Source: Candidatus Eiseniibacteriota bacterium (GTDB taxonomy: Bacteria > Eisenbacteria > RBG-16-71-46). From it: a stretch of 64,000 nt of DNA. Under the pieces are notes generated by a model. It made no database searches. It was not told where the DNA came from and saw only the letters and a list, made by a program, of their open reading frames with translations. Of the stretch, positions 3 to 29,400 are shown piece by piece. A program made the position numbers and the translations under genes. Within the stretch, counting starts at the first letter, position 1; each line of letters opens with the position of its first letter. The DNA lies in the NCBI GenBank assembly GCA_963707915.1, contig OY970178.1:3328001-3392000 (forward strand). Reading direction: 5' to 3'.

Positions 3-2138
3 GCCGAGTTCCGGATCCCGTTCTCGCAGCTCCGCTTCGCCCGGGCCGAGCGGCAGGAGTGGGGCGTCAACTTCGGGCGCTCGCTGGGGCGCGGGTTCGA
101 GGAGAACTTCCTGGTCTACACCCCGAGCAATGAGAACGGGTTCGTCTCCCGCTTCCCGCTCCTCGCCGGGCTCGAGAACGTGAGCCCCGGCCGCGCCATC
201 GAGATCATGCCCTACGGCACCTCCATGGCCGAGTACCTGCAACACGAGCCGCTCGATCCCTTCAACGACGGCTCGCGCCTCTCGCCGAACGCGGGCGGCG
301 ACCTGCGCATGCCGCTCGGCAGCCGGCTGACGCTGAACGCCACGGTGAATCCCGACTTCGGCCAGGTGGAGGTGGACCCGGCCGTCGTCAACCTGAGCAA
401 CGTCGAGACCTTCTTCCCGGAGAAACGCCCGTTCTTCGTCGAAGGCAACTCGGTCTTCAACGCCGGCCAGCAGGGCGCGAGCAACTACTGGAACTTCGAC
501 CTCCCGCAGCCCACCTTCTTCTACTCCCGCCGCATCGGGCGCGCGCCGGTCGGCAGCCTCCCGGACGACGCCCGCTTCGCCGACGTGCCCAACGGGACGA
601 CGATCCTCGGCGCGGCGAAGGTGAGCGGCAAGCTCGGGTCGGCCGCCAACTTCGGCATGCTCCACGCCGTCACGGCGCGGGAGCGTGCCGACCTGCTGGA
701 TGGCGGCCTTGCGCGGGTGAACGGCTTCGAGGTCGAGCCGCTGACCTACTACGGCGTCGCCCGCGTGCTCCGGGAGTACCCCGAGCGCCGCCACGGGATC
801 GGCGCGATCACCACGCTGGCGGCCCGGAGCTTCGAGTCGCGGCGCCTCGAGGACGAGTTCAACCGCACGTCGCTCACCACGGTCGTGGACGGCTGGCACT
901 TCCTCGACCGCGGGCAGGTGTGGGTGCTCTCCGGCTGGGCCGGCGGCACGCGCGTGACCGGCAGCCCGGACCGCATCGCGGCCATCCAGACCAGCTCGCG
1001 GCACTACTTCCAGCGTCCGGACGCGAAGCGCTACGACGTGGACCCGGCGGCCACCTCGATGTCGGGCCTGGGCGGGCGCGTGTGGCTCAACAAGGAGAAG
1101 GGCAGCTGGGCGAGCAACAGCTCCCTCGGCGTCCTGAGCCCGGGACTCGAGATGAACGACCTCGGCTACCTCAGCCAGGCCGACCTCGTCGGCGGTCACG
1201 TCGCGGGCGGCTACCGCTGGACCAAGCCCACCCGGAACGTCAAGAACCACAGCCTCACGAGCGCGCTGTTCGGGAGCACGAACTTCGACGGCGACCTGGT
1301 CGGTGCCGGCGTCTTCACCGAGGCGTTCTGGTGGTACACGAACAACTGGTGCCTCGACCTGACGGGCGCGTACAACCCGCAGACGGTGAACCCGCGCCGC
1401 AGCTGGGGCGGACCGCTCATGCTGAACCGGCCCGGCTACTCGCTGGGGCTGTTCATGGACACCGACGGGTCGCGGGTCCGCTACTACTACCTCAACCTGT
1501 TCGGCTCGGCGCAGCCCGCGGAGGGCTCGTGGGCCTGGAGCCTCGCGCCGGGCATCGCCTGGAAGCCCGCGGCCAATCTCCAGTTCTCGCTCGGCCCCGA
1601 ATTCAACCGCTCGCGCGACGGCGCGTTCTACTTCGGCTCGCTGGACGACGCCTCGGCCGCGGCGACCTACGGGCGCCGCTACCTGTTCACCGAGCTCGAG
1701 CAGACCTCGCTGGGTGCGACGCTGCGGGCCAGCATCTCGTTCACTCCCACCATGAGCCTGCAGTTCTACGGCCAGCCGCTCATCGCGACCGGCGCGTACC
1801 GGAACGTCAAGGAGCTGGCGCGGCCGCGGAGCCTGGACTTCACCGGGCCCGGCGCGGGCGCGTGGACGTTCGATCCCGCGACCAACCGGTTCGACCCGGA
1901 CGGCGCGGGCCCCGACGCCCCGTACTCGCGGGACTTCAACTTCCGATCGCTGCGCGGCAACGCCGTGTTCCGCTGGGAATACCGCCCCGGATCGACGCTC
2001 TACCTGGTCTGGACCCAGCAGCGCACCGACGCGGAAGGGAAGAGCGAATTCGACCTGGGGCCGTCGTTCCGCCGGCTGATGAGCGCCGACGCGGACAACA
2101 TCTTCCTGGCGAAGGTCACCTACTACCTCAACCTGTAG
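3..2138 (+). CDS. DUF5916 / carbohydrate-binding family 9-like outer membrane protein (5' truncated by window)
   Basis: Frame is open from base 3 (AEFRIPFSQLRF). Motifs NPDFGQVEVD, FFPEKRPFF, FYSRRIGR and a beta-barrel-like C-terminus (KVTYYLNL). Confidence 0.85.
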   Translation, partial: AEFRIPFSQLRFARAERQEWGVNFGRSLGRGFEENFLVYTPSNENGFVSRFPLLAGLENVSPGRAIEIMPYGTSMAEYLQHEPLDPFNDGSRLSPNAGGDLRMPLGSRLTLNATVNPDFGQVEVDPAVVNLSNVETFFPEKRPFFVEGNSVFNAGQQGASNYWNFDLPQPTFFYSRRIGRAPVGSLPDDARFADVPNGTTILGAAKVSGKLGSAANFGMLHAVTARERADLLDGGLARVNGFEVEPLTYYGVARVLREYPERRHGIGAITTLAARSFESRRLEDEFNRTSLTTVVDGWHFLDRGQVWVLSGWAGGTRVTGSPDRIAAIQTSSRHYFQRPDAKRYDVDPAATSMSGLGGRVWLNKEKGSWASNSSLGVLSPGLEMNDLGYLSQADLVGGHVAGGYRWTKPTRNVKNHSLTSALFGSTNFDGDLVGAGVFTEAFWWYTNNWCLDLTGAYNPQTVNPRRSWGGPLMLNRPGYSLGLFMDTDGSRVRYYYLNLFGSAQPAEGSWAWSLAPGIAWKPAANLQFSLGPEFNRSRDGAFYFGSLDDASAAATYGRRYLFTELEQTSLGATLRASISFTPTMSLQFYGQPLIATGAYRNVKELARPRSLDFTGPGAGAWTFDPATNRFDPDGAGPDAPYSRDFNFRSLRGNAVFRWEYRPGSTLYLVWTQQRTDAEGKSEFDLGPSFRRLMSADADNIFLAKVTYYLNL

Positions 2139-15756: not shown

Positions 15757-17004
15757 ATGGGGCCAATCCTCGTTTTCGACAAGTCGTTCTTGCAGAGCAT
15801 CAATCCTGATGAAGCGGTGTGGCTTGACCACTTCTTCCTGACCAACATCACACCACTGTTCTTCATCGAGACCCTCGCGGATCTTGAGAAGGAGGTGCGC
15901 AAGGGACGTACTCCCGAGCAAGTGGTTGGGAATCTCGCCTACAAGACCCCCGACTTGAACTCGAAACCAAGCGTTCACCACACGCGGTTGTTGAGCGGCG
16001 AACTCAGCGGGCGGGCGCCTGTACCCATGGGCGAGGGACAGATCATCGTGCCGGGTGGGAAGCAGACCGTGCTCGATGGGAAGAGCGGCGTGTTCTTCGA
16101 GCAGTCGCCCGAGGAAGAGGCGCTGAGCCGCTGGCAGAAGGGGCAGTTTCTTGATCTCGAGCGCCAGCAAGCCAAGCAATGGCGCCGCGGCCTCTCGCTT
16201 CTTACTCCCGAGAAACAGCGCGAACTCTTCTCGCCGTGGTTTCAAACAGGGACACCGAATACGCTGGCAGACGTGAAGCTTGCGGCAGACGGGTTCATTG
16301 ACCAATCGGACCAGGAGCGATCCCTCTCGTTTGGCTTGGCACTTGTTGGGGTGAACCCTGCGGGACAAGCCGAAATCCTCGGACGCTGGCGCGCCTCCGG
16401 ACGACCGTCAATCGCTGTCTTCGCCCCGTACTTCCGGCATGTGTACGGCGTGGAGCTGTTCTTCTACCTTGGGCTCGCCGCGCGGCTGATCTCCGAGCGT
16501 CGGACAAATCACGTTGACCTTGCCTACCTCTTCTACCTGCCGTTCTGCATGGTCTTCACGTCCTCCGACGACCTGCACGCTGCGACGGTGCCCCTCTTCC
16601 TGCGCGACAACCAGACATTCGTCCCGGGTGCCGAGTTGAAGGCCGACCTCGGAGCACTGGATCGTCACTACAGTGCCTTCCCGGACGAAGCGAAGGCTCG
16701 CGGGTTGTACGAGCTCGCAGCCTGGCCGCCGGTGGATGATGCGTTTCTCGTGTCGAGACTGTGGGACGCCCACATGCGACCCGACTGGAGGGAGATCGCC
16801 GTCAAACCAGAGCCAGCGCCGGATAAGACGCGGGATGCGAAGCTCGTCGAGAGGCTCCGCGACCAATGGGAGGCGGGACGAGCGGCCCCAGAAGCCTCCT
16901 CGGGCAACTCGGGCGATGTCGACTACATGGTGGTCACGCGCAGAGTGGATATGAAGAAGGGAAAGTGGAATCGTTTTCCGCCAGAGGTGAAGCCCGACCC
17001 CTGA
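15757..17004 (+). CDS. Hypothetical protein, possible PIN-like nuclease fold
   Basis: N-terminal LVFDKSFL...IETLADLEK and C-terminal VDLAYLFYLPFCMVFTSSD resemble the PIN acidic-residue spacing. Confidence 0.6.
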   Translation: MGPILVFDKSFLQSINPDEAVWLDHFFLTNITPLFFIETLADLEKEVRKGRTPEQVVGNLAYKTPDLNSKPSVHHTRLLSGELSGRAPVPMGEGQIIVPGGKQTVLDGKSGVFFEQSPEEEALSRWQKGQFLDLERQQAKQWRRGLSLLTPEKQRELFSPWFQTGTPNTLADVKLAADGFIDQSDQERSLSFGLALVGVNPAGQAEILGRWRASGRPSIAVFAPYFRHVYGVELFFYLGLAARLISERRTNHVDLAYLFYLPFCMVFTSSDDLHAATVPLFLRDNQTFVPGAELKADLGALDRHYSAFPDEAKARGLYELAAWPPVDDAFLVSRLWDAHMRPDWREIAVKPEPAPDKTRDAKLVERLRDQWEAGRAAPEASSGNSGDVDYMVVTRRVDMKKGKWNRFPPEVKPDP

Positions 17005-17118
17005 TGCCCGCCGTCGACAACCTTCTGAGAGTGCCACGCTCTCTAGATGATGCCGTGACCTGTTGGTTTGCGCAGCGTAGGCTTCGTCCGGGTGTCTTGA
17101 CCTCAGCCCCTCATCGAG

Positions 17119-18096
17119 GTGGATCCAATGATCTCTGCACTAGATGCAGTGTATCCCGAAGACGGCCTCTGCCGCATCCTCGCGTTGGACGGTGGTGGGG
17201 CGAAGGGCTTCTATACCCTCGGGGTGCTCAAGGAAGTGGAGGGGTTGCTCGGGTGTCATCTCCACAAACGCTTTGATCTCGTCTTCGGGACGAGCACCGG
17301 TGCCATCATCGCCTCCCTGATCGCGCTTGGACACAGCATTGACGAGATCCACGCGTTGTACAAAGCCCACGTTCCTCGCGTCATGGCCGAGCGCTCCCCC
17401 CGGGGTAGGGCAGCGGCCCTCGAGCGCTTGACCAAGGAGGTCTTTGGAACGAAGTCGTTCGAAGACGTCAGGACGGGTGTCGGGGTCATCGCGACGAAGT
17501 GGTCGATCGAAAGACCGATGATCTTCAAGGGAAGCGTTGCGCAAGCCCACGGCCGTAGAGGGACATTCACGCCAGGGTTTGGGGTGACGATCGCCGACGC
17601 GGTCAAAGCTTCCTGCTCTGCCTATCCGTTCTTCGATCGCACCACCTTGGTGACGTCTTCGGGGGATAGGGTCGAACTCATCGACGGAGGATATTGCGCG
17701 AACAACCCGACGCTCTACGCGATCGCGGATGCGGTTGCCGCGCTGGGGAGAGACACCAAGGACCTGCGGGTTGTGAGCGTGGGGGTGGGAAGTTACCCCG
17801 AGCCAAAGCCGGGATTGAAGATGTGGCTGGCGAAGAAATACCTTGTTAGCGTCCAGCTGCTGCAGAAGACACTCGAGATCAACACGCAATCAATGGATCA
17901 GCTCCGAGCGATTCTGTTCCGCGAGGTCCCCACTATTCGGATCAGTGACGCATTCGAGCACCCGGAGTTGGCCACGGACCTCTTGGAGCATGACCTCGCA
18001 AAGCTCAACCTCTTGCACCAACGTGGGAGGGAGTCATTTGCGTCGAGAGAAGACCAGCTGAAGGCCTTTCTCCTACCTAGCGGGACGACAGCATGA
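17119..18096 (+). CDS. capE: CBASS patatin-like phospholipase effector (CapE/CapV type)
   Basis: DGGGAKG, GTSTG and DGG motifs. Overlaps the CD-NTase start (ATGA). Confidence 0.88.
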   Translation: MDPMISALDAVYPEDGLCRILALDGGGAKGFYTLGVLKEVEGLLGCHLHKRFDLVFGTSTGAIIASLIALGHSIDEIHALYKAHVPRVMAERSPRGRAAALERLTKEVFGTKSFEDVRTGVGVIATKWSIERPMIFKGSVAQAHGRRGTFTPGFGVTIADAVKASCSAYPFFDRTTLVTSSGDRVELIDGGYCANNPTLYAIADAVAALGRDTKDLRVVSVGVGSYPEPKPGLKMWLAKKYLVSVQLLQKTLEINTQSMDQLRAILFREVPTIRISDAFEHPELATDLLEHDLAKLNLLHQRGRESFASREDQLKAFLLPSGTTA

Positions 18097-18986
18097 CAAT
18101 CCCAGAAGCGCAGTTTGAAACCTGGGCGCATCAAGGCTCAATCGCACAGTCACGCGACACCTATGCCTCAGTGGGTCGTGTATTGCGCGCGTCGGACACC
18201 CCGTACTCCGGGAAGGCGTACCGTGTGTTCCTGCAGGGATCTTATGGCAACGACACCAACATCTATGCGGAGAGCGACGTCGACGTCGTGATCTGCCTGG
18301 ACGAGTGCTGGGGCAGCGATCTCTCGGAGTTGTCAGGGCCGGAAAAGGCCGCGTACGAGAGCTCTCACGTGACGGCGACGTATTCTCATGTGGACTTCAA
18401 GCGCGATGTGCTGGATGTCCTCAGGGCGCAGTACGATGACGACGTTGAGGCTGGGGACAAGGCCATTGCGATTGCCGCTAACGGCAACCGCAGAAGATCG
18501 GACGTCATTGTCTCTACGGAGTTCAGGCGCTACAGGCGTTACGTGAACGCCACCGACCAGGACTACGTGACCGGAATCTGCTTCTTCAACAAGTCCGGAG
18601 CGCGCATCGAGAACTACCCCCGGCAGCATTCAGAGAACCTGACACGTAAGCATCAAAGCGCGGGAAATGGGCTGAAGCCAATGATTCGGGCCCTTAAGAA
18701 CCTCAGGGGGAGGCTGGTCGACGACGGCGTGATTGAGTCAGATCGTGCGCCGTCCTACTACCTCGAGGGACTGCTGTACAACGTGCCAGACGAACTGTTT
18801 GTCACAAGCCTCCAGCAGACGTTCGTAAACAGCGTCAACTGGCTACAGTCTGAGGCGGACAAGGCGAAGCTCTTGTGCGCGCATGAGTTGTACTATCTCC
18901 TCTGGGATGACTCTCCGACATCGTGGCCAAGAACTCATTGCGACGAGTTTCTTTCGGCCGCGACTGACCTGTGGAACGAGTGGTGA
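18093..18986 (+). CDS. cdnE: cGAS/DncV-like nucleotidyltransferase, CdnE-like
   Basis: IPEAQFETWAHQG, QGSYGNDTNIYAESDVD, NYPRQH and PSYYLEGLLYNVP motifs. Confidence 0.9.
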   Translation: MTIPEAQFETWAHQGSIAQSRDTYASVGRVLRASDTPYSGKAYRVFLQGSYGNDTNIYAESDVDVVICLDECWGSDLSELSGPEKAAYESSHVTATYSHVDFKRDVLDVLRAQYDDDVEAGDKAIAIAANGNRRRSDVIVSTEFRRYRRYVNATDQDYVTGICFFNKSGARIENYPRQHSENLTRKHQSAGNGLKPMIRALKNLRGRLVDDGVIESDRAPSYYLEGLLYNVPDELFVTSLQQTFVNSVNWLQSEADKAKLLCAHELYYLLWDDSPTSWPRTHCDEFLSAATDLWNEW

Positions 18987-19108
18987 GCAAGTACTCGGGC
19001 CGGTAGTCTCGGACTTCCGTCATTGTCCGTTTCGATCTTCAAGTCCGGCAGGTAGAAGTCCGTGGTCTCGAAGAGCCAAGTTCGAAGACGGACGCAAGTG
19101 GTCCGCCA
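18935..19108 (-). repeat. Divergent copy D of the serine recombinase C-terminal tail / att-like site
   Basis: Minus strand reads WRTTCVRLRTWLFETTDFYLPDL, with the same W-x7-RTWL-x6-LPxL spacing as the recombinase tail. GAGCCAAGTTCGAA is shared with the 23.67 kb copy. Confidence 0.6.
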
Positions 19109-19483
19109 CTCACAGGAGAGTTTGGGCCAAGCGAATACATGTCGCCCCCGTGGGTTACGACCCGCGGGGGCGATCTTGTGTCTTGGCAGATCTGGGCGCC
19201 TTGGGGAGCGTTCGGGCAGCCGAAGGAACCGCAGAATGGGACAAGAACGGTGACAAGAATCAGAGATCACTTGCGCCGCGATCGACGGCCGTGCGCTAGG
19301 CCGGGTGCCCGGCGTTCGTCGAGGACTCGGGGCATGGGATTCCGGCGGGTGGCGTCTTCTGGTGGTCACGGATGGACACGAGAGAACAGCGAAGGACCCG
19401 TTAGGCCGCCAAAGTAGCAACCATTTGGTAGCCAGAATCCGGCTACCAGAGCAGCGGTCTAGGCGACCGCGTGGCCGCAACCC

Positions 19484-19511
19484 TTGACGAGCCCGCTGGG
19501 GGGTGTATGCT
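19484..19511 (+). promoter_or_regulatory. Sigma70-like promoter for the lexA-led operon
   Basis: TTGACG-N16-TATGCT immediately before ATG 19522. Confidence 0.5.
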
Positions 19512-19521
19512 GCTGTATGCG

Positions 19522-20154
19522 ATGACTCTCCGACCTCTCACCCCCAAGGAATTCCAAGCTCTCCGGCACATCCGGAACTGCCTGGCACATGGCCAACCCG
19601 CGCCCACCGTTCGCGAGCTAAAGGACCTGCTGGAGTACCGGTCACCACGCTCCGCGGCGGTAATTCTGGAGCGGCTTGCTGCCCATGGGTTCATCCGCCG
19701 CCGTCCGGATGGCCAGCTCCAGCTGCTCCGCGATCTGCCGGAGGGAGCCGCCCATGCGCGTACCGTGCCCGTGCCGCTCGTGGGCGCGATCGCCTGCGGC
19801 GCGCCGCTTCTGGCCGAACAGAACATCGAGGCGATGATTCCGGTCTCGCTCTCTCTCGCCCGTCCGCCGCACAACTACTTCATGCTTCGCGCGAAAGGCA
19901 ACTCTATGAACCGCGCGGGCATCCAGGATGGTGATCTCGTGCTCGTCCGACAGCAGCCAACTGCCCAGGACGGCGACCGGGTGGTCGCCCTGATCGATGA
20001 CGAGGCTACGGTCAAGGTGCTGCGACGAGCGGGCGATGCGATTGCTCTCGAACCGCGTTCAACGAACAAGCGGCACGAGCCCATCCTCGTGACTACGGAT
20101 TTTCAGGTCCAGGGCGTTGTCGTCGGAACTATTCGTGCCCCGCGTATGAGGTAA
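19522..20154 (+). CDS. lexA: LexA-family repressor (wHTH + S24 peptidase)
   Basis: PTVRELKDLL, IACGAP cleavage-site region, GNSM (catalytic Ser) and ATVK (catalytic Lys). The start could be 19507. Confidence 0.9.
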   Translation: MTLRPLTPKEFQALRHIRNCLAHGQPAPTVRELKDLLEYRSPRSAAVILERLAAHGFIRRRPDGQLQLLRDLPEGAAHARTVPVPLVGAIACGAPLLAEQNIEAMIPVSLSLARPPHNYFMLRAKGNSMNRAGIQDGDLVLVRQQPTAQDGDRVVALIDDEATVKVLRRAGDAIALEPRSTNKRHEPILVTTDFQVQGVVVGTIRAPRMR

Positions 20155-20163
20155 TCTTGCACC

Positions 20164-21036
20164 ATGGCCATTTCCGAACAACAACTCGCGAGCTGGGCCA
20201 AGGGGCCGGGTGCCACCGAGCAGGAGCGTTGCGACACGACTGTGCGCCGCATCACTGAGGCCCTGCGTCCGTTCTACGGTAGCCGAGTGACCATCTTCCC
20301 GCAGGGCTCGTATCGGAACCGGACGAACGTGCGGCAGGACAGTGATGTAGACGTGGCGGTGGTCGAGAGCTCCGCCTACATTGGCGATACGTCGCGGATG
20401 GGACCTGAGGCTTTGGCGCGGTGGAACGCGATGTCTCCAGCCAGCTACACATTCGCGCAGTTGAAGGCGGACGTGCACCAACAACTCACCGCCGCCTTCG
20501 GGCCACGTGTTGAACGCCGTAATAAGTGCATCTTCGTACCTGAGACCGCCAGCGGCGTTGACGGTGACGTTGTCCCCGCCTTCGAGTACCGGCTGTTCGA
20601 CTACAACGGCTACAAGACGGCCAGCGGCATCGCTTTCTACGCTGACCGGGGCGGATTGTTCACCAGCTTTCCGCAGCAGCACTACGATAACGGGGTGGCG
20701 AAGAACGACCGGACGCAGCGGATGTACAAGCGAGCGGTGCGCATCCTCAAGAATGCTCGGAACACCCTCGTAGAGAACGGGCAGCTGGGGGACACGTTCG
20801 CGCCGTCATTCTTCCTTGAATGCCTTACGTACAACGCGGCCGACCGAGTGTTCTTGGCAAGCACCTATACCCAAAGCATCAAGCAGGTGATCGAGGACCT
20901 TTGGGAAGCAACCAAGCCCAGTCGCAGCGGGAGCCTCGTGGAAGTTAGCGAAGTGAAGCCGCTCTTCACGGCCGAGCACACCGCGGACGAGGCACGCACG
21001 TTCCTGCGAACCGCCTACACGTTCATCGGGTTCTGA
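20164..21036 (+). CDS. cdnE: Second CD-NTase, CdnE-like
   Basis: ISEQQLASWAK, QGSYRNRTNVRQDSDVD, SFPQQHYDNGVAKN and PSFFLECLTYN motifs. Confidence 0.9.
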   Translation: MAISEQQLASWAKGPGATEQERCDTTVRRITEALRPFYGSRVTIFPQGSYRNRTNVRQDSDVDVAVVESSAYIGDTSRMGPEALARWNAMSPASYTFAQLKADVHQQLTAAFGPRVERRNKCIFVPETASGVDGDVVPAFEYRLFDYNGYKTASGIAFYADRGGLFTSFPQQHYDNGVAKNDRTQRMYKRAVRILKNARNTLVENGQLGDTFAPSFFLECLTYNAADRVFLASTYTQSIKQVIEDLWEATKPSRSGSLVEVSEVKPLFTAEHTADEARTFLRTAYTFIGF

Positions 21037-21038
21037 GC

Positions 21039-21668
21039 ATGGGCATTCAACTCCATCGCGCAAGCCATTTCGTCCTCTTCATCTTAGTGCTGCCGCTCCT
21101 CAGCTTGGCGTTGGCTTGGGAATGCAGCCGAGTCGTGGCGATGGTGGTTCCCCCTGGCTGGGCATTTGCCGTCGATTCGGTCGGCACGATCGGCGCCTAC
21201 GGTCTTCTGTTCAAGGCCTTTGACCTCTGGCTTTGGCGGTGGCCGGCCTTTCGCTCCCTGGGCATCGTTCAGCCCCCTCTCATGGCAGGCCGGTGGGTCG
21301 GTTCATTGCGTTCCTCCCATGACAATCATGAGACCCGCCACGAGGCCGTGGTGGAAGTACGCCAGAGCTTCACTTCTGTGCGCGTGGCCATGTACTTCGC
21401 GGGCTCGCGATCGGCCAGCCTGATCGCGGGGTTTGCGCAGGAGGCGGATGGTGGCGTGGCGCTCCACTACGAGTACCAGAACGTGCCGTCCGTTGATGCT
21501 TCGCGGACCATGCACATTCACTACGGCACGGCCACGCTCCAGTGCGTCCCGGGACGGCCGCGGATGGAGGGGCACTACTACAACTGGGGACGTGACGAGA
21601 GAGGGCACTACGGAGTGATGGAGTTCTCCTTCGAGAGCGCTAAACTACTGGGCCGGTTCTCCCAGTGA
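21039..21668 (+). CDS. cap15: CBASS Cap15-like effector (2TM + SMODS-associated beta-barrel)
   Basis: Two N-terminal TM helices, then FDLWLWRW, GRWVGSLRSS, YEYQNVP, HYGTA and GHYYN motifs. Starts 2 bp after the CD-NTase. Confidence 0.82.
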   Translation: MGIQLHRASHFVLFILVLPLLSLALAWECSRVVAMVVPPGWAFAVDSVGTIGAYGLLFKAFDLWLWRWPAFRSLGIVQPPLMAGRWVGSLRSSHDNHETRHEAVVEVRQSFTSVRVAMYFAGSRSASLIAGFAQEADGGVALHYEYQNVPSVDASRTMHIHYGTATLQCVPGRPRMEGHYYNWGRDERGHYGVMEFSFESAKLLGRFSQ

Positions 21669-21722
21669 CGCTCACGAACTGAGTCCACAACGCATTAACT
21701 AACTAAGAGAAGGAGATAACGT

Positions 21723-21980
21723 ATGGACACGCAGGACAAAGTAAAGACCGTCACGATCATCGTGGAAGGCACTCCGCACGAGTGGCCCAAGGGTGAGATC
21801 ACCTACGCGGAGGTCGTCACTCTTGAAGTGCCGGACTACGCGCAGCACCCGGAGATCACGTACTCGGTGACCTACAAGCGCGGGCACGGCGAGAAGCCCG
21901 AAGGGATTCTCGTGAAAGGCGGCTCGGTCAAGGTAAAGGACGGGATGATCTTCCGTGTTTCAGAAACTGGTCAGTCATAA
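21723..21980 (+). CDS. Multiubiquitin-domain ubiquitin-like protein
   Basis: Beta-grasp pattern VTIIVEG...ITYAEVV...YSVTY...VKVKDGMIFRV, ending TGQS. Strong AAGGAG RBS. Confidence 0.85.
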   Translation: MDTQDKVKTVTIIVEGTPHEWPKGEITYAEVVTLEVPDYAQHPEITYSVTYKRGHGEKPEGILVKGGSVKVKDGMIFRVSETGQS

Positions 21981-23142
21981 CGACGACTTGGGTCGTTTGG
22001 TCGACAAGGGTTATGCCGTCGGCTTCGACCCGGGGCTTCTGATTGTTCGTGATATCCCGTACCTGGATGACCAGAAACGACTGCAGATTGGTGCGATTGT
22101 CGCGAAGCTGGTTCTCATCGACGACGACCGAGTCAGCCAGGACGATCACCAGATCTACTTCGCTGGCTCTGCCCCTTGCGACGTCAACGGCTCGGCGATC
22201 CCCAATCTCGCTGGCGGCTCCGCCAGCATCCCGATGAGCGACGCAAACAAGGACGTGGTCGTTCAGCGGTCGTTCTCTAACAAGCCTCGTGCCACGGGGA
22301 AGTTCGACAACTTCTTCGACAAGATCGAGAGCTACGTAGCGATCATTTCGGGTCCAGCCATGGAGCTGTACCCCGATGCGACTCCCTTTACGTTCCACGT
22401 CGTGACGACCTATCCCGGGTCGGTATTCAAGTTCCACGACACCCTTACAAGCAGAGCTGAAATCGGAGATCTGTCCGGGAGGTTCAAGGACGACATCATC
22501 GCGGTCATTGGACTTGGTGGCACCGGCGCGTACCTGCTGGATCTTCTGACGAAGACGCAGGTGCGCGAGATCCGCGCGTTCGACCACGACCACTTCTACG
22601 TGCATAACGCCTTCCGGTCTCCAGGGCGACTTCAATCAGGAGAACTCGGAAGGCTGAAAGCGGACGTGTACCGGGACCGCTACGACTCGTTTCGAACCGG
22701 GCTCTCGATCGAGAGGAGACTGATTGACGCCTCCTCGGTGGACGCGTTGGACGGCGTGACCTTCGCGTTCGTGTGCGTCGACAAGGGCTCGTCGCGGGCG
22801 GGCGTATTCGATGCCCTTCTTTCCAAGCGCATCCCGTTCATTGACGTCGGGATGGGCCTGAAACGCAGAGACGGCAGCCTGAACGGAATGCTGCGCGTCA
22901 CCTACTTCTCGTCGGAGGATGGTGGGCAGGTGCGCGCGAAGGGACTCGCTGAACTGGCCGACACGCCGGACGACCTCTATCGAACCAACATCCAGACCAG
23001 CGAGTTGAACGCGCTGAACGCTGCCTTGGCCGTCGTGAAGTTCAAGAAGCTCCGAGGCTTCTACTTCGAGGAAACGCCCTACTACCATCTTCTCCACGAC
23101 GTTGGAGACTCCACGATGGTCGGGGAATCGGAGCTGACATGA
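21955..23142 (+). CDS. E2-like (DUF6791-type) + ThiF/E1 fusion protein
   Basis: N-terminal DIPY...DHQIYFAG...SFSNKP. C-terminal GLGGTG, DHDHFYVHNAFR, FVCVD and NIQTSELNALNA. Confidence 0.85.
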   Translation: MFQKLVSHNDDLGRLVDKGYAVGFDPGLLIVRDIPYLDDQKRLQIGAIVAKLVLIDDDRVSQDDHQIYFAGSAPCDVNGSAIPNLAGGSASIPMSDANKDVVVQRSFSNKPRATGKFDNFFDKIESYVAIISGPAMELYPDATPFTFHVVTTYPGSVFKFHDTLTSRAEIGDLSGRFKDDIIAVIGLGGTGAYLLDLLTKTQVREIRAFDHDHFYVHNAFRSPGRLQSGELGRLKADVYRDRYDSFRTGLSIERRLIDASSVDALDGVTFAFVCVDKGSSRAGVFDALLSKRIPFIDVGMGLKRRDGSLNGMLRVTYFSSEDGGQVRAKGLAELADTPDDLYRTNIQTSELNALNAALAVVKFKKLRGFYFEETPYYHLLHDVGDSTMVGESELT

Positions 23143-23540
23143 GGTTCAGGCTCCAGCGAGTTGAGTACATGCCCAAGACCCTGGAGCCGGGGGTCCTGTA
23201 CGTCTCAGAAGCTTTCGGCACAGCAGCGCACCTCTGCGCCTGCGGTTGCGGCTCCAAGATCAGGACACCACTCGGCCCCACTGAGTGGCACGTCGAGGTT
23301 ACGAAGCGGGGACCAAGCCTGTATCCCTCCGTCGGGAACTGGCAGAAGCCCTGTCAGTCGCACTACTGGATTCGCGAGGGCAACGTGCGGTGGGCAGCGA
23401 AATGGACATCGGAGGAGATTGCCACGGGTCGCAGGCACGAGGAGGAACGCCGACACGCGTACTACGACTCCGGTCGTCCAGCGCCCGGGAATATCCTGGC
23501 GAGATTCTGGTGCTGGCTGAAGCGTCTGCTTGCTCGCTGA
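23139..23540 (+). CDS. DUF6527 family protein (putative Ubl-processing peptidase)
   Basis: HLCACGCG and SLYPSVGNWQKPCQSHYWI motifs. ATGA overlap with the ThiF gene. Confidence 0.82.
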   Translation: MRFRLQRVEYMPKTLEPGVLYVSEAFGTAAHLCACGCGSKIRTPLGPTEWHVEVTKRGPSLYPSVGNWQKPCQSHYWIREGNVRWAAKWTSEEIATGRRHEEERRHAYYDSGRPAPGNILARFWCWLKRLLAR

Positions 23541-23579
23541 CCCAGCTTGTCCACAGAAGGTGCCACTCTAGTGTCGTAC

Positions 23580-23704
23580 CCCCTCTAGGCAGCTTCGCTG
23601 CTTCGTGGCACACTGACTTCACCCTTGAGCCGGTCGAGCTTCGGCAGCGGAATCCACGCGTGTTTCTTGAGCCAAGTTCGAACGTCGTCCCTCATGGCGC
23701 ACCA
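23580..23704 (-). repeat. Copy A of the serine recombinase C-terminal tail / att-like site
   Basis: Minus strand WCAMRDDVRTWLKKHAWIPLPKLDRLKGEVSVPRSSEAA* (23585-23704), homologous to 24582-24701 and 25628-25717. Confidence 0.9.
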
Positions 23705-24007
23705 GCGTCGTTTTGGTGCATCCACCCCCACGAAAAGTGGATAACGAGCAGACCGACCGCCAATCAAGGCGGTTTTGTTGTTTGCGGTAGGGGGGTGGAC
23801 GTGACAACAGAGACGCGAAACGGTGAGTTATACCCAGAAGCGAGGACGTTCGAACTCGCGGCAAGAGTTCGAAGCGACTACTTGACCAGCCCCTGAGGAC
23901 ATGGTTGGGTGACTAAGTGGATTGTTCGTTTCGCACAACATTCAATTCGTTCCTCCCTTGCCTGATGCTCGCACGCATGGTGTGCGCAGCAGTCCAGGGG
24001 AGGAACG

Positions 24008-24274
24008 ATGCGCAGGTTGCGGTTGCTTCCGATAACGTTCGGGCCGTCCTATGAGGTCGCACCGACCCCCGGCACGAAAGCTGCTGCCACCTGTACGGTC
24101 GTCGTCGCGGCGGTCGTGCTGGTAGCGGTTGCAGTTGCCGTGGTGAGATGGCCGTGGGTCGCCATGCTCGCAGGTGCCGTGGCCGCATTCACCTGGGGAC
24201 GGAAACACTACGGTGGTGACGCAATCATCGTGGGTATCGTGCTCCTTGTCGCGGGGTTGTCTCTGCTGAGGTAG
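24008..24274 (+). CDS. Small multi-TM membrane protein, hypothetical
   Basis: GGAGG RBS and 2-3 hydrophobic segments. Confidence 0.6.
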   Translation: MRRLRLLPITFGPSYEVAPTPGTKAAATCTVVVAAVVLVAVAVAVVRWPWVAMLAGAVAAFTWGRKHYGGDAIIVGIVLLVAGLSLLR

Positions 24275-24366
24275 GTGCAATCGCACCTTCCAGAGTTATC
24301 GCTCGCGGGTCGATCTCTTCGGAGTTCGACCCGCTTCTTCTTGTCTCATCAACTCAGATGACGGCC

Positions 24367-24585
24367 ATGGAACATGACCAACGTTTTGCTCTGGGGCTGA
24401 CCCAGGCTGAGGTGGATCGACTGCGCGACATTATCCATCGGACTCGTGGCGTCACGTTATCGGAGCAAGAAGCGTGGGTGTGTGCAATCCGGCTTCTCAG
24501 TCTCGGACTGACGACTCTGAAAGCGACCGCGCCGAAGGAAGACATCCACAAGGATGAGACATGCGTGGTGCGTCCGCCCCTCTAG
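24367..24585 (+). CDS. Small protein, paralog of the 27226-27432 recombinase-associated protein
   Basis: QRFALGLTQAEVDRLRDIIHRTRGVTLSEQEAW aligns with QRFALGLTEAEVDRLRDILRRTRGLELTREEAW. Confidence 0.75.
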   Translation: MEHDQRFALGLTQAEVDRLRDIIHRTRGVTLSEQEAWVCAIRLLSLGLTTLKATAPKEDIHKDETCVVRPPL

Positions 24586-24701
24586 GCAGCAACGCCTTTT
24601 CGTGGCAAACTATCTTCGCTCTTCAAACGATCAAGCTTGGGCAGCGGAAACCATGGAGTTTTCTTGAGCCAGGTTCGAACGTCCTCCACGATGGAGCACC
24701 A
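24577..24701 (-). repeat. Copy B of the serine recombinase C-terminal tail / att-like site
   Basis: Minus strand WCSIVEDVRTWLKKTPWFPLPKLDRLKSEDSLPRKGVAA* (24582-24701). Same 120-nt length as copy A and a shared CCCCTCTAGGCAGC end. Confidence 0.9.
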
Positions 24702-24767
24702 AGAACGAATCTTCGAACAAAAACACAAATCCAGCTTGATTCCATTAATCAGAGCTGAGTTCGAACT

Positions 24768-25631
24768 ATGAGACACAAGTTTCCAGACAACTTTGTAACT
24801 ATTGGCCATTTTGGCTTAGAGCAGCATTACTCAAAACATGCTCCACACGACATTCTTACAAAGTTACGCCATACATTAGGTTCCCTGATTGGATCTGAAG
24901 GAGACGTGGTGTATGTTTTTATCCTCATAAGAAAGCTTCTAGAGTTAGATAAACATAAACGAGTCTTTCCGACGTTGTCGCTGATATGTGATTGGATAGC
25001 ACATGTGCGGCTCGATAGAAATAGCACTGGTTACAAAATCATCGAGAATATAGATCGGGAACTCTATTTCAAATACGCCGTGCTTGATAAACGACCGTAT
25101 GATCGGAATAGGACAAAAGCACAGGAGCGGCATATAGAACGTCAACTTGCGGGCTTATGGACATTGCGTGGCGAGTTGAGATTCTTCTTACGCCATTATC
25201 ATCTCCCGATTACGATTGTAAATAAAACCCCATCATGGAACCGATTACGTCGTTTTCTGTTTAATGCTCTCGCGAATAGTCCCCTCACAGTTCAAACAGC
25301 TGACGATCTATTAGTAATAAAAAGCATCTCATTCACTTCTGTTTGGCACGAAGCTCAACCCCAATCATCCAGGGCAAGAAATCTATTTAACGATCCGCCA
25401 TACCCCAGATGTAGAATTCTAGTTAAGGATGGGATAATGCTGCCAGGAACTGAGCATATGAATCCAGAAGATGAGCAGATTATAGAGGTCTCATTAAAGA
25501 CTGTAGACATTCGCGACTTTATTTCCGAGGAGGAGTTTGTTAAACTTCAAAAGACGATGAAGGATCTTCCAGAACATTTCTTCAAAGACGATCCCAAAAC
25601 TACCGGAACCACCCGAACCAAATCATCTTAG
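24768..25631 (+). CDS. AT-rich hypothetical cargo protein
   Basis: 287-aa ORF, visibly the most AT-rich stretch in the window. Contains VYVFILIRKLLE...LICDWIAH. Its stop overlaps the recombinase stop. Confidence 0.7.
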   Translation: MRHKFPDNFVTIGHFGLEQHYSKHAPHDILTKLRHTLGSLIGSEGDVVYVFILIRKLLELDKHKRVFPTLSLICDWIAHVRLDRNSTGYKIIENIDRELYFKYAVLDKRPYDRNRTKAQERHIERQLAGLWTLRGELRFFLRHYHLPITIVNKTPSWNRLRRFLFNALANSPLTVQTADDLLVIKSISFTSVWHEAQPQSSRARNLFNDPPYPRCRILVKDGIMLPGTEHMNPEDEQIIEVSLKTVDIRDFISEEEFVKLQKTMKDLPEHFFKDDPKTTGTTRTKSS

Positions 25632-27187
25632 CTTTCAACGAGACGATCCAACCGAGGTAGTGGCAACCACTTATCTTTCTTTAACCAAGTTCGAACGTCG
25701 TCCCTTAAGGCGCACCAATTGCTAATGAGCCCTTGTCCTTCGATGAAGGAGAAGGGTTCGTTGGCTTTGTAGAGCGGTTCCTTGCCTTCGACCGCGAAGT
25801 TCGAAGCGACGGCCTGGACAATTTCCCGTCGTTGAACTCCGACCCCGCGCTCGAAGGCCGCCGCGCAGCGGTTCGTGAACTGGAAGAGCTCGGTCGCGCG
25901 CTGGAGGTACTCCTCCGGCTCGGTCGGCGGAACCTCGAGCTGCAGCTTGAGCTTTGCCTGTCGCTCCAAGATCTCAAGCCTTCGCTTCTCGAAGAGGTCC
26001 TCGTCTACCTGCCCGCGCAGCCGAAGCGTGAGCAGCGTTTCGCCCTCACGCAGGGACGCGCCGAGGGCCTCCTGGAGCGAGCGGTGTGAGGCTGTGTCGG
26101 TCACGGTCTCCGCCTCCAAAGTGTGCTTCAGGTTCTCCGTCACCCATCCGACCACTTCCTCCGGCACGGCCACGGCATGCAGGGTCTTCTGGATCGCCGT
26201 CTCGAAGTCCGGCTCCGGAATGCAGGTCGCATGCGGACAGGGCGTGCTTCTCCCAAGGCCATGACAGCGGTAGTACACGTAGGTTCGACCTGACTGCTTG
26301 CGGTGCTGCTCGCCGGTCAGAAGTCCGCCACACTTGCAACGCAGTAGCCCGCCGTAGGGGAACTCGTGACGCGCCGGGCGGGCGCGCCCTGGCCGACCAA
26401 GGATACCGGCCGCACGCTCGAACTCCGCCGGGGTGACCATCGGCTCATGGCCGCCGCGGTAGCTCTCACCGCTGCGCAGCTGGATGAGCCCCATGTAGTA
26501 GGGATTCTGGAACATCCGGTAGAGCATCGTGATGCACATCGGCCGGCCGCCCAGTCGCGCCGTCTTGCGCGTGCGGAAGCCCCACTCCTCGGTTGCCAGC
26601 TTGAGGATCTGCTTGGGGCGGAGGCTATCGGTGAGCACGAGGTCCCACATCTTGCGCACGAGCGTGAACCGCTCGGGGTCTTTCACGACGGTCTTGGTCG
26701 CATGGTCCTCGATGTACCCCAGGGGCGGGCGGAAGTTCGGCCAGCCGCGCTGGAACCGCGCACGGTTGCCGCGCCGCACGTTTTGCCGCAGATCGTCGAT
26801 GAACTTGGTGGCGATGCCGAGCTCGAAGTTGCCCATGAAGCGGTCATTGCCGTCAGCGGTGTACGTCCGATCCGAGGTGATGACGGTGAGCTTGTGGTCG
26901 GCCAGCGCTTGCAGGACCCGGCCGGTGTCGGCGTGGTTGCGCGCCAGCCGGTCGAGCTTCCAGCACAGCACGGTCGCGATCTCGCCCTGGGACACGCGGC
27001 GCATCAGTTGATCGAAGACCACGCGGCCCGGAGCTTTAGCCGAGCGCGACTCGGAGAGGATCTCCGCGACCTGGTGCCCATGGCGCAGCGCCAGGAGTTT
27101 GAGCTCTTGGACTTGGGAGTCGATGGAGAGGACCTGCCGATCCTCGGATTCGCTGGATTTCCTAGCGTAGATGACACATTGCGGCAT
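25628..27187 (-). CDS. Large serine recombinase (resolvase + recombinase + Zn-ribbon/coiled coil)
   Basis: YARKS (catalytic Ser), ESRSAK, KLDRLARN, PLGY, NPYYMG, GLLRCKCG and YYRC motifs. Confidence 0.95.
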   Translation of the reverse strand: MPQCVIYARKSSESEDRQVLSIDSQVQELKLLALRHGHQVAEILSESRSAKAPGRVVFDQLMRRVSQGEIATVLCWKLDRLARNHADTGRVLQALADHKLTVITSDRTYTADGNDRFMGNFELGIATKFIDDLRQNVRRGNRARFQRGWPNFRPPLGYIEDHATKTVVKDPERFTLVRKMWDLVLTDSLRPKQILKLATEEWGFRTRKTARLGGRPMCITMLYRMFQNPYYMGLIQLRSGESYRGGHEPMVTPAEFERAAGILGRPGRARPARHEFPYGGLLRCKCGGLLTGEQHRKQSGRTYVYYRCHGLGRSTPCPHATCIPEPDFETAIQKTLHAVAVPEEVVGWVTENLKHTLEAETVTDTASHRSLQEALGASLREGETLLTLRLRGQVDEDLFEKRRLEILERQAKLKLQLEVPPTEPEEYLQRATELFQFTNRCAAAFERGVGVQRREIVQAVASNFAVEGKEPLYKANEPFSFIEGQGLISNWCALRDDVRTWLKKDKWLPLPRLDRLVES

Positions 27188-27225
27188 AGAGGTCTAGGTA
27201 GTGATGCCTCAAGTTCGAAACGCAG

Positions 27226-27432
27226 TCAAGAGGGAGGACCTTCGAACTCGCGGGGTTTCCTTGAAGAGGTGGCCTGGAGGATGGTCCAGCCGAGGGAGAG
27301 AAGTTGAATCGCCTTGGCCCACGCCTCCTCGCGCGTGAGCTCCAGCCCGCGCGTGCGCCGCAAGATGTCGCGGAGGCGGTCCACCTCCGCTTCGGTCAGG
27401 CCAAGCGCGAAGCGTTGCGTTCGAGCATCCAT
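27226..27432 (-). CDS. Small protein directly upstream of the recombinase (candidate directionality factor or regulator)
   Basis: 68-aa ORF co-oriented with the recombinase, with a paralog at 24367-24585. Confidence 0.7.
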   Translation of the reverse strand: MDARTQRFALGLTEAEVDRLRDILRRTRGLELTREEAWAKAIQLLSLGWTILQATSSRKPREFEGPPS

Positions 27433-27596
27433 GCAACCATGATCGCGCAGGAGTAGCGACCGGCGTAGGGGGGAGGACGTCCACAGGGCGAGCTTCGCTG
27501 TGCATAGCGACAATCGAATCCCTCTTCCACAGACATGCACAGTTTGCGCACCTCCACCCCCCTACAACGATTCCCTGGCAGGACTATCGTGGAAGC

Positions 27597-27878
27597 ATGT
27601 TGGTGCAATACACCAAGCGAACGTGGCGAAACCGGCCGCGCTTCCCCAACAAGATCCGCGAGTACCGCCTCAAGGCCGGCATCTCGCAGAGCAAGCTCGC
27701 CGCCCTGCTCGGCCGCGGCCGCAACGCGGTCTCGTCCTGGGAGCGTGGACTGTCGCTGCCAAACGTGCCGCGTCTCCTACGCATGGCGAAGATCCTCGGC
27801 ACACTCTCCGAGGCGCTCTACTTCCAGTTCTACTCCACCCAGGGAGCAGATGGTGAGCTCAGCGGCACTGCGGCATGA
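27597..27878 (+). CDS. Cro/CI-type HTH transcriptional regulator
   Basis: IREYRLKAGISQSKLAALLG...VSSWERG..LP. Confidence 0.88.
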   Translation: MLVQYTKRTWRNRPRFPNKIREYRLKAGISQSKLAALLGRGRNAVSSWERGLSLPNVPRLLRMAKILGTLSEALYFQFYSTQGADGELSGTAA

Positions 27879-28360
27879 GGGAGCGTCTCTTGCGCTGGTT
27901 CATGGCCCACGCCAACGGTCGCGGCGTGGTGCTGGGCCGAAGCGAGGTCATGGAGGCGGAGCTGGACGCAGCGTCTGACGTGCTTCAACAGGAGCTCACA
28001 GCATTGGAGCGGGAGGGAGTCGTCGAGATCATCGCCCCGCTACCGTTCCTTGTCCTTCGACTCAAGAAATGGTCTGGCAGGGGCCAACAAAGCACCTTTG
28101 CCTATAGCTCTCTGCTATCAAACAATCAATTGATTGAAAGCAACAGCCATAGGCACGATCCACTCCTCCACGAGATCCTCGAGACACTCGGGGAGACGGA
28201 CGTGAAGGCGTTCGCCCCGGTGCTCGAGCACTACTCCCCGCAGATCATTCGCACCGCTCTGAGAAGGGTCCGCCGCGCCCGCGGCATCCGGAAGAGCCGC
28301 ACCGCGCTCTTTCGCCACCTGCTCCCGCGACTCGCGCAAGCCGAACCCGAGCGCAACTAG
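27875..28360 (+). CDS. Hypothetical wHTH protein, replication-initiator-like
   Basis: wHTH-like N-terminus. The C-terminal IRKSRTALFRHLL motif recurs in the next gene. Confidence 0.6.
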   Translation: MRERLLRWFMAHANGRGVVLGRSEVMEAELDAASDVLQQELTALEREGVVEIIAPLPFLVLRLKKWSGRGQQSTFAYSSLLSNNQLIESNSHRHDPLLHEILETLGETDVKAFAPVLEHYSPQIIRTALRRVRRARGIRKSRTALFRHLLPRLAQAEPERN

Positions 28361-28368
28361 CCCTCCCC

Positions 28369-28899
28369 ATGTCCTCGCTCCAACCCATCACCCTTACCCT
28401 CGATCGCCGCATCCTCGAGCATCCGCGGGCCTACCACCTGCGACGCATGCGCGCGGGACTCTGGCTCTACCTCGACCTCTTGGCCCGGCTCCCGGCCGAC
28501 GCTGAGACGTTCGAGGTGGAGCCCGCGGCGGTCGGGCGGGACATGGGGCTCCCGGAGGGCACGGTCCGCTCCTGGCTCGGGCACCTGCGAAAGGCCGGCT
28601 ACCTCGACGCCGTGCGCCTCAACGGCAAGGTCCGGGTGACGATCAAACGGGCCGCAGCGCCGGAGACCCCGGCAGAACCCCCGACGCCGACACGCTTCTT
28701 CACGGTCGCCAAGCTCCAGCGAGCGCTCGGCGAGCCGGGCAACGCCGAGGCCTTCGAGGCCGCGCTCAGCCTCTACCCGGACGACGGTCGTGAAGCGCGC
28801 CCTCGCCGGCACGCTGGCGGTGCCCGAGACCCAGATCCGTCGCTCACGCACCGCGCTCTTTCTTTACCTCCTACAACACGCCATGCCCAAGAAGACTGA
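28369..28899 (+). pseudogene. Paralogous wHTH protein, frameshifted near 28788
   Basis: GLWLYLDLL...TVRSWLGHLRKAGYL. The C-terminal IRRSRTALFLYLL continues in another frame. Confidence 0.6.
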
Positions 28900-29400
28900 C
28901 ACCATCCTCGCCCTCGATCCCGGTCTCCGCGACCTCGGCTACGCCGTGCTCCACGGCCGCCGCCTCGTGGCCAGCGGCGTGCTCGCGCTGCGGCGCGTCC
29001 CGAAGGCAGAACGTCTCGCGCACAGCGCGCAAGCACGTGCGCACGTGGCTGCGAACGCACCGTCCGCAGCGTCTGGTCGTCGAGAAGACCTACCGCCATC
29101 CGGTGCCGTGGCTCGATCGAGCTCCACCGGCTCACGCGCAGGCCCGGAACCTCGCCACCCGCCAGCACACCGCCTTCGCCATGTACTCGCCGCAGACGCG
29201 TCCGCGCGACCGTCGCCGGCAACGGCAAGGCCAAGAAGCCCGAGGTCGCCATCGCCGTCGCGCATCCGCTTCCCGCAGCTCCGGGTCTACCTCACGCAGG
29301 ACCGGCGCTGGAAGGAAGCGTACTGGCAGAACATGTTCGACGCGTCGCGCTGGCGCTCCATCACCAAGCAGCGACGCAACCGCCCTCCCGCAGCCGGTGA
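28883..29400 (+). pseudogene. RuvC-like Holliday junction resolvase, multiple frameshifts
   Basis: ILALDPGLRDLGYAV, then LVVEK, then YWQNMFDA in shifting frames. The end is approximate. Confidence 0.7.

Follow-up and report, generated by a model that had tools for sequence, protein, structure and literature searches.

Why would the end of a recombinase gene be present four times, always in the same orientation, within a few kilobases of one bacterial chromosome? The question is raised by a 64,000-nucleotide stretch of Candidatus Eiseniibacteriota (contig OY970178.1 of assembly GCA_963707915.1, positions 3,328,001 to 3,392,000), hereafter the window, in which the gene of a large serine recombinase (LSR) is followed by three further copies of its own last codons. 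The initial annotation of this DNA took the arrangement to be an integron-like array of cassettes, built by an LSR whose attachment (att) site lies inside its own 3’ coding end. Here we favor, at a probability of roughly 0.6, a related but different reading, in which sibling islands of this LSR, together with derivatives that lack a recombinase, docked repeatedly at the LSR 3’ end and thereby built a one-sided array of defence genes.

The last ~30 codons of the LSR gene (78-90 nt), which we call its tail, recur three times downstream on the same strand, and the similarity begins abruptly at one Trp codon. We number the tails outward from the LSR, tail 1 being its own (Table 1). Tails 1 to 3 share 76-77% identity over 78 nt (25640-25717, 24624-24701 and 23627-23704) at spacings of 1016 and 997 nt, and tails 2 and 3 have 125 nt in common at 78%. 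A degenerate 20-mer of the core matches four times in the window where 0.12 matches are expected, and none of 100 shuffles reached four. Furthermore, a profile of homologue tails run over the 64 kb gives four same-strand hits with scores of 40, 55, 49 and 35, the last being the diverged copy at 18935-19108, whose best match is the tail of locus L098. Nothing comparable was found by this profile elsewhere in the 64 kb, the other hit being one of score 10 on the other strand near 29022-29060. For tails 1 to 3, ungapped identity rises from 0.07-0.37 over the 60 nt that precede the Trp codon to 0.76-0.92 over the 25 nt from this codon on. All four tails are open to a stop, and behind each lie genes on the opposite strand. 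As such, three observations of the initial annotation hold: the tail recurs three more times in the same orientation, its homology starts sharply at the Trp codon, and each open copy is followed by convergent plus-strand cargo. A tRNA or other RNA gene was also considered for the tails, and both ARAGORN and Rfam were negative at these positions.

So where in the tail does exchange take place? The answer comes from relatives. Among 8000 candidates scored, 2146 match the LSR at E <= 1e-20, and 165 loci were gathered (79 from genomes, six from the same taxonomic family and at least 80 from metagenomes), which left 112 with a complete LSR after dereplication. Most of the 120 best hits end in the same type of tail, while at least nine, judged by eye, diverge right after the Trp into a peptide encoded by an antisense tRNA. 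An antisense tRNA gene lies over the LSR 3’ end in 23 of the 112 dereplicated complete loci, and the TGG of the Trp codon is there the CCA of the tRNA. Both island ends are visible in three loci, L136, L159 and L167 (Table 1), where attL consists of flank, a 6-7 bp core and the native tail, and attR of the LSR body, the same core and the antisense tRNA. These junctions place the crossover within 6-7 bp at the Trp codon and indicate that the LSR gene is split by integration. In the same three loci, the TTCGAAC-like motif is found at +22..28 in the native tail versus +17..23 in the tRNA, where it is the T-loop. In serine integrases the zinc-ribbon motif lies 5 bp nearer the crossover in attB than in attP, according to PMC3783163, and the 5-bp inward shift from tail to tRNA fits this rule. 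The split LSR genes of tRNA-integrated relatives thus suggest that the tails are attP-type half-sites that double as replacement C-termini, and the TTCGAA motif has the P’-type spacing in all four tails of the window.

Together, the split-gene relatives and the 23 antisense-tRNA loci show, as far as sequence comparison can, that the att site lies inside the LSR gene, with a conserved Trp, some 30-40 codons ahead of the stop, at its centre; the site geometry listed for tail 1 is a prediction taken from the split-gene relatives. The placing of the att site in the recombinase 3’ coding end and the notion of each tail as a ready replacement C-terminus are thereby upheld. The centre itself has to be moved, since the initial annotation had the copies centre on GTTCGAA, whereas TTCGAA comes 22-27 nt later than the Trp codon, at which the exchange would take place. 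A crossover at the TTCGAA palindrome had been suggested by conservation of the DNA, by a T-loop inference in PMC3146451 and by locus L135, a 9.6-kb tRNA-Lys island with an exact 23-bp flanking repeat (1917-1939 and 11471-11493) that runs from the CCA end/TGG to the T-loop/TTCGAA. We set it aside in favor of the Trp-codon core because of the split-gene junctions, and prefer that core while allowing that some events may have involved an exchange near TTCGAA. A dyad-symmetry test around the Trp codon gave no clear centre except the TTCGAA palindrome itself.

Close relatives of the window offer a view of what happens at this site. Comparison of near-identical LSR bodies shows that whole tails have been exchanged: the window LSR and the homologue P0001 differ at 13 positions in the first 490 residues versus 10 in the last 29, P0122 (of the same 90% cluster) and the pair P0002/P0123 likewise differ in the tail, and the distal part of the P0001 tail is closest to tail 2 of the window. 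Assembled contigs of four public runs were furthermore mapped on 13000-30000, where 24907-25473 is without contig cover in all four runs, a gap that by itself carries no information. In run X1, the LSR body has 68 differences in 1725 nt (96% identity), the upstream helix-turn-helix (HTH) region has 10 in 718 nt, and module 3 is present. One X1 contig joins 23695 to 25709, skipping 2013 nt, with nine common letters at the Trp codon; in this relative the LSR body continues directly into tail 3, with modules 1 and 2 missing. The contig, as assembled, shows one natural variant without two modules and with its joint at the core. In run X4, a contig with ~99% identity in module 3 runs from 23579 straight on to 24577, so that 997 nt, or one repeat unit, is skipped and module 2 is absent. 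Both contigs agree with the earlier claim that modules are present or absent as units. A further X1 contig, of depth 3.8, has 15559 joined to 27700 with 13 other letters between, which would remove the whole LSR segment and the array; this joint may be chimeric or a cross-organism match, and we leave it uninterpreted.

Could homologous recombination alone have produced this picture? Local duplication or gene conversion of the LSR 3’ end, without any site-specific recombination, would be in keeping with the X4 joint, which falls where tails 2 and 3 are identical over their longest stretch, and with the mosaic similarity among the tails. However, the tails are just 61-92% identical by segment and have unrelated flanking cargo, tail 4 comes from another LSR lineage, and the X1 joint lies in the 9-nt identity at the Trp codon despite a 19-nt identical run at the core. 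The use of the same site as a tRNA junction in 23 of 112 relatives, and the split-gene junctions above all, argue strongly against such an origin, which we regard as highly improbable.

In order to see whether arrays recur, the last 45 residues of each LSR served as query against its own locus (E <= 1e-4, within 8 kb). Among the non-tRNA loci with 3 kb or more of sequence past the LSR, 13 of 69 have one to three extra same-strand tails downstream, and none has one on the opposite strand; the prediction that tail arrays recur downstream of homologous recombinases is in this way supported. None of 17 tRNA loci has extra tails, and an upstream copy occurs in just one of 86 loci. Tail spacings in the arrays of relatives are 0.6-8.9 kb, and many of the modules are small and LSR-less (0.6-3 kb), with three in a row in L058. 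For the cargo, 66 of 78 called open reading frames (ORFs) were scanned against Pfam, twelve of 50-69 aa being left out. This cargo includes LexA-like repressors, a cyclic-oligonucleotide-based antiphage signaling system (CBASS) with SAVED and HORMA proteins, AAA_13, AAA_15 and AAA_21 ATPases, an Eco57I-like enzyme, AbiEii, HigB, SocA, a PIN-TPR-GreABC protein, and DUF4062, DUF3800, NYN and nSTAND proteins. The same cargo, a DUF4062 protein with an M15 peptidase, lies between tails in L012 (11593-13900) and L102 (4914-6950) at 68-72% DNA identity, and its orientation relative to the LSR is opposite in the two.

It is at this point that the nature of the incoming units has to be weighed. If the array were a true serine-recombinase integron, dedicated circles that never carry an LSR, each formed around a tail site, would be captured by a fixed platform. 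The many small LSR-less modules, including the three in a row of L058, would suit this well, as would the strict one-sidedness of the array, the swapping of tails on near-identical LSR bodies, and module 1 with its single foreign gene of 41.6% G+C. However, modules take the form of opposite-strand multi-gene operons with their own regulators and have no common promoter logic, several tails in relatives are plainly the ends of broken LSR genes, the same site serves ordinary island integration in the tRNA-integrated relatives, and the enzyme is a serine and not a tyrosine recombinase. We consider a true integron unlikely, and the dedicated cassettes of the initial annotation give way to modules that look like sibling islands and their recombinase-less derivatives.

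Where do the broken LSR genes occur? In L008, a second, near-complete LSR of 486 aa lies between the two tails, together with a CBASS operon, a LexA-like gene and a small ORF; the frame of this LSR stops precisely where the Trp codon would be, ~200 nt short of tail 2. The tails of L008 are 95% identical to each other, whereas the best match of its second LSR in the collection, the LSR of another locus, reaches just 47%. Extra tails run upstream into LSR sequence for 45-65 codons in L097, L102 and L168 and for ~20 codons in L070 and L104, and a second HTH core gene follows the LSR in L093 and L094. Within the window, module 2 encodes a homologue of the small protein directly upstream of the LSR, which we read as a ribbon-helix-helix (RHH) protein (see below). 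Module 2 also has two TTCGAA motifs, at 23849-23854 and 23868-23873, that precede tail 3 by ~145 nt and resemble, in swapped order, a pair before the LSR start. The same two likenesses are seen by blastn, which matches 27268-27417 to 24528-24379 (the inverted neighbour-gene homologue) and 27231-27253 to 23839-23861. The second LSR of L008, the truncated LSR ends in relatives, and the RHH homologue and motif-pair remnant in the window lead us to conclude that at least some modules are, by all appearances, what is left of sibling islands whose recombinase was lost. Recombinase bodies ahead of tails, which the initial annotation had reckoned as evidence for simple decay of tandem islands, are thus seen in relatives (L008, L097, L102 and L168), while in the window the trace is partial and consists of the RHH homologue and the motif pair. 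LSR-body remnants in the window were not found by blastn at word size 7, and the tblastx output was noise.

These same remnants could be read as the record of a purely historical accretion, in which complete sibling islands integrated in succession, the older LSRs decayed, the tails are dead scars and nothing moves now. The second LSR of L008, the truncated LSR ends before tails in L097, L102 and L168, the HTH core gene remnants downstream of the LSR in L093 and L094, and in the window the RHH homologue, the motif-pair remnant of module 2 and the weakly conserved left arms all fit this history. Against it stands the comparison with X1, as the resident LSR and upstream genes are 96-98.6% identical between the two, yet modules 1 and 2 differ; accretion is strained because two whole-island insertions and two clean LSR losses must fit into this short divergence. 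Moreover, blastn detects no LSR-body remnant in the window, and the tails are still open reading frames with their first 25 nt conserved at 76-92%. A variant with the newest island upstream predicts a displaced own tail upstream of the intact LSR, which is seen in one of 86 loci; in the window, a profile search of the whole stretch found none, and there is no tail-like TTCGAA context above 27246. Accretion without any present movement therefore seems to us rather doubtful.

How could repeated docking at the LSR 3’ end work? Relatives show that integration of an island at the CCA end of a tRNA splits the LSR, with its body fused to the antisense tRNA and its native tail left at the far island end. 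The native tail thus acts as a P’ half-site, with the TTCGAAC-like motif 22-28 nt from the Trp, and as the C-terminus whenever the site is unbroken. The window LSR sits unbroken inside a tyrosine-integrase island, and its 3’ end would have been used repeatedly as a partner site: incoming DNA that bears a tail would recombine at the Trp codon, the LSR would gain a new tail, and the older tail with its cargo would be pushed outward, so that the newest module is presumably the one nearest the LSR gene. The incoming units would be sibling islands and recombinase-less derivatives, like cis-mobilisable elements or pseudo-SCC cassettes, and the LSR may still be able to excise or take up units in trans, possibly helped by the RHH neighbour. 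The outcome would be a one-sided array that stockpiles defence systems.

Several points weigh against this reading and must be taken into account. Canonical serine integrases recombine attP with attB alone unless a directionality factor is present, whereas all four tails of the window are P’-type, which means that formation of the array would need non-canonical pairing or a helper protein. The left side of tails 2 to 4 is poorly conserved, and these sites may be dead. The X1 joint is the key evidence and comes from one contig of depth 4, while the X4 joint coincides with 14 identical nt at the distal ends of tails 2 and 3, their longest such stretch, where homologous recombination fits equally. 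The 23-bp repeat of L135 exceeds the 6-7 bp cores of L136, L159 and L167 and leaves room for an exchange near TTCGAA. The mosaic tail of P0001, which before TTCGAA is like tails 1 and 3 and after it like tail 2, hints at the same. More tentatively still, the LSR and its tail array could be a working gene-capture platform, an integron counterpart with a serine enzyme, in which circles of tail and cargo without an LSR are taken up and released at the Trp codon. Each event would then rewrite the C-terminus of the LSR, and whichever tail is present, native, foreign or encoded by a tRNA, would tune activity or direction; such platforms, riding in larger mobile elements, could be a general route of building defence islands in uncultured phyla.

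Table 1. Features of the window (positions in the window), followed by three tRNA-integrated relatives with their island lengths.
Feature	Position or length	Strand	Remarks
Tail 1	25628-25717	-	Trp codon 25715-25717, predicted common core and P’-type arm, TTCGAA 25690-25695, 29-codon C-terminus
Tail 2	24582-24701	-	39 codons, open to a stop
Tail 3	23585-23704	-	39 codons, open to a stop
Tail 4	18935-19108	-	diverged; type of another LSR lineage; TTCGAA at the same +22..+27 spacing
LSR	25628-27187	-	519 aa, intact, native-type tail; Pfam, PHROG and PDB matches
Small neighbour protein	27226-27432	-	68 aa; kept directly upstream of LSR in relatives
Two TTCGAA motifs	27214-27219, 27241-27246 (within 27205-27260)		before LSR start, inside 3’ end of the 68-aa neighbour gene
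Core operon	27597-28899	+	HTH_3 protein, 161-aa ORF, 176-aa ORF; divergent, conserved
Module 1	24702-25627	+	one 287-aa gene (24768-25631), 41.6% G+C
Module 2	23705-24581	+	75-aa homologue of RHH neighbour (24358-24585), 88-aa ORF (24008-24274)
Module 3	19109-23584	+	LexA-like S24 repressor, CBASS cyclase, Cap15-type two-transmembrane (2TM) effector, multiubiquitin, E1-like DUF6791-ThiF, DUF6527
Module 4, probably composite	13254-18934	+	CBASS cyclase 18093-18986, patatin phospholipase 17119-18096, 415-aa ORF, 79-aa ORF, HTH_17-helicase 13497-15515
tRNA-Ser(CGA) 5’ half, displaced copy	13191-13253	+	alignment with 58431-58493; left island end
tRNA-Ser(CGA), complete gene	58450-58539		adjoins tyrosine integrase; right island end
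Tyrosine integrase	57436-58416		domain search
Island of L136	7667 bp		core TGGTGC; both island ends visible
Island of L159	3941 bp		core TGGTGGA; both island ends visible
Island of L167	5539 bp		core TGGCTGG; both island ends visible

The enzyme at the head of the array is, to judge from its domains, a large serine recombinase, with a resolvase-type catalytic domain (Pfam Resolvase PF00239, E 2.6e-20, residues 5-148) and a C-terminal zinc ribbon (Zn_ribbon_recom PF13408, E 2.4e-6, residues 279-335). It matches a PHROG integrase at E 3.6e-63, its catalytic domain finds the TP901-1 and SPbeta integrases in the PDB, and its residues Y7, R9 and S11 are invariant across 42 aligned homologues. PF07508, precomputed for many homologues and present in the second LSR of L008, is unreported in the window LSR. 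In the whole 3.6-Mb genome the LSR is single-copy, and it and its tails are confined to one locus. The LSR is present in five of 89 genomes of the same taxonomic family, at 57% identity at best, and scans of genome contigs gave no relative above 60% identity. The loci gathered come from Eisenbacteria, Ignavibacteria, Verrucomicrobia, Zixibacteria, Patescibacteria and other groups, and the LSR appears to be part of a family of small integrative islands that is widespread and has hardly been studied.

The core of this island family probably consists of five genes, namely the LSR gene, genes for an HTH protein and a small RHH-like protein, and two unassigned ORFs. The 176-aa ORF, which has a weak DnaD-like PHROG match (E 0.0013), has homologues in 38 loci, where it is always found on the strand opposite to the LSR and upstream of it; the 161-aa ORF and the HTH gene accompany it. 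For the 68-aa neighbour, 18 loci have a homologue on the LSR strand at a distance of ~105-190 nt upstream, and L152 has one 4.3 kb upstream. The neighbour gives no family hit; we infer that it is an RHH protein and a candidate regulator or directionality factor. The two TTCGAA motifs before the LSR start could act as a tail-like secondary site for recombination or as an operator. In 17 of 59 rows, near-duplicates among them, the core motif is found again in inverted form 68-96 nt ahead of the LSR start codon; the single scores of these copies are within the range of shuffles, yet their position is constant. In L012, L104 and L112, the HTH/161-aa/176-aa operon lies 4-7 kb farther from the small neighbour gene than the usual ~0.5 kb, and from this displacement the divergent promoter region seems to be a second insertion spot. 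Just past the core operon of the window, at 29494-30025, a RuvC/RuvX-like gene is seemingly split across two frames and may be a pseudogene.

Several of the cargo sets in the window are found directly behind LSR tails elsewhere, namely the ubiquitin-like trio in L085, the Cap15 2TM effector with its cyclase in L033, and the 79-aa ORF with the helicase in L063 and L162. Module 3, for which genes were called with Pfam and PADLOC, ends in a LexA-like gene of the kind that lies before the second LSR of L008. In module 1, the 287-aa gene has no family in Pfam, PHROGs, NCBIfam or PADLOC, and no relatives in the genome contigs searched. Between the start of this gene and tail 2, at 24712-24765, are two more TTCGAA motifs, one with a tail-like right flank that may be a tail vestige.

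The array itself lies within a region that stands out in composition, since G+C is ~70-78% outside and falls to ~60% between roughly 10 and 59 kb of the window. The displaced half-copy of tRNA-Ser(CGA), together with the full tRNA gene beside a tyrosine integrase, indicates that the whole LSR array is in all likelihood nested in a ~45-kb tyrosine-integrase island at tRNA-Ser(CGA) that is rich in defence genes. Besides the LSR array, this island carries NACHT, D12 methylase, ParB, PRTase-CE, type I restriction-modification, ThiF-JAB, MT-A70 and HerA genes. To the left of the tRNA-Ser fragment, 8875-12456 is a variable patch separate from the island, with an rve-integrase fragment, an AAA_21 ATPase and a 292-aa ORF with strong G-over-C skew. 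At 61774-61873, a small signal recognition particle RNA gene lies right behind a tRNA-Ala gene, an ordinary arrangement.

How does this system relate to those already known? Integrons use the tyrosine recombinase IntI, folded attC sites and a capture site outside the integrase gene, their promoterless cassettes are expressed from one promoter, and some chromosomal integrons bank defence cassettes. Like integrons, the window has a one-sided array beside the recombinase gene, with the newest unit presumably nearest the recombinase and with defence cargo; unlike them, it has a serine recombinase and opposite-strand multi-gene operons with their own LexA-like regulator. In SSV1-type archaeal viruses, attP lies inside the integrase gene and integration into a tRNA partitions that gene, but the recombinases are tyrosine enzymes, and to our knowledge no tail arrays have been described for these split integrases, whereas a serine enzyme and tail arrays are found here. 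Accretion of streptococcal integrative and conjugative elements with cis-mobilisable elements, in which siblings integrate into resident att sites and decayed ones keep their att, again involves tyrosine recombinases, and it differs from the present case in that the att site here is inside the recombinase gene. Our literature search found no description of an integron-like serine-recombinase cassette system, or of a serine recombinase gene that is its own docking site.

The staphylococcal cassette chromosome (SCC) comes nearer as regards the enzyme. Its target gene is rlmH, whereas the target here would be the recombinase gene itself. Ccr large serine recombinases mobilise tandem SCC-like cassettes rich in defence systems, as stated by Hossain et al. 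2024 (PMC11470126). SCC and the present system, as read here, have in common the integration at a gene 3’ end with a replacement end, and tandem arrays that include recombinase-less cassettes mobilised in trans. The LSR scores 42.6, 37.7 and 31.3 bits against the CcrA/B/C models of NCBIfam, far below their cut-offs of 900, 700 and 900.

The closest precedent for the layout, for which the initial annotation knew of no named system, is found in the ssrA islands of Dehalococcoides, as described by McMurdie et al. 2011 (PMC3146451). These small islands lie in tandem at the 3’ end of a tRNA-like gene, with 20-bp direct repeats of the transfer-messenger RNA (tmRNA) end, and encode a ~540-aa serine recombinase, DsiB, whose 3’ end always overlaps attL. 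Fifteen of them, about half, are without an integration module and were called possibly cis-mobilisable, and the authors considered that the recombinase gene may need the circular form, or a neighbouring island that supplies the missing 3’ fragment, to be complete (PMC3146451). The two share a recombinase 3’ end that overlaps the att site, and tandem islands of which some have no recombinase. They differ in the repeat, here a coding, frame-preserving tail of 90-120 nt and not a 20-bp tmRNA end, and in the location, here on the recombinase gene itself inside another island and not on ssrA. The window array adjoins no tRNA, its partner being the recombinase tail, though a tRNA is the target in 23 of 112 relatives. 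The companions are RHH and HTH proteins and the 161-aa and 176-aa ORFs versus DsiA and RecF-like, ParB-like and Mom-like proteins in Dehalococcoides, and the cargo serves anti-phage defence versus dehalogenases; the likeness drawn here to DsiB is one of layout.

At the least, these comparisons yield a concrete and testable mechanism for the growth of one kind of defence island, through site-specific docking at a recombinase’s own 3’ end. A C-terminus that is swapped with each recombination event would be an unusual form of self-modification and could bear on the control of directionality. Furthermore, the engineering of serine integrases could draw on the natural attP/attB pairs of the family, some of which have tRNA ends as targets. 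The window probably represents a route of building defence islands that is little known but, given its likeness to published cassette systems, not wholly new. A layout that had been reported for a single genus (Dehalococcoides, 2011), and to which staphylococcal SCC is analogous, is extended here to a large family, and what is new beside those systems is the coding, frame-restoring tail repeat, the array on the recombinase gene inside another island, the other companions, and a far wider family.

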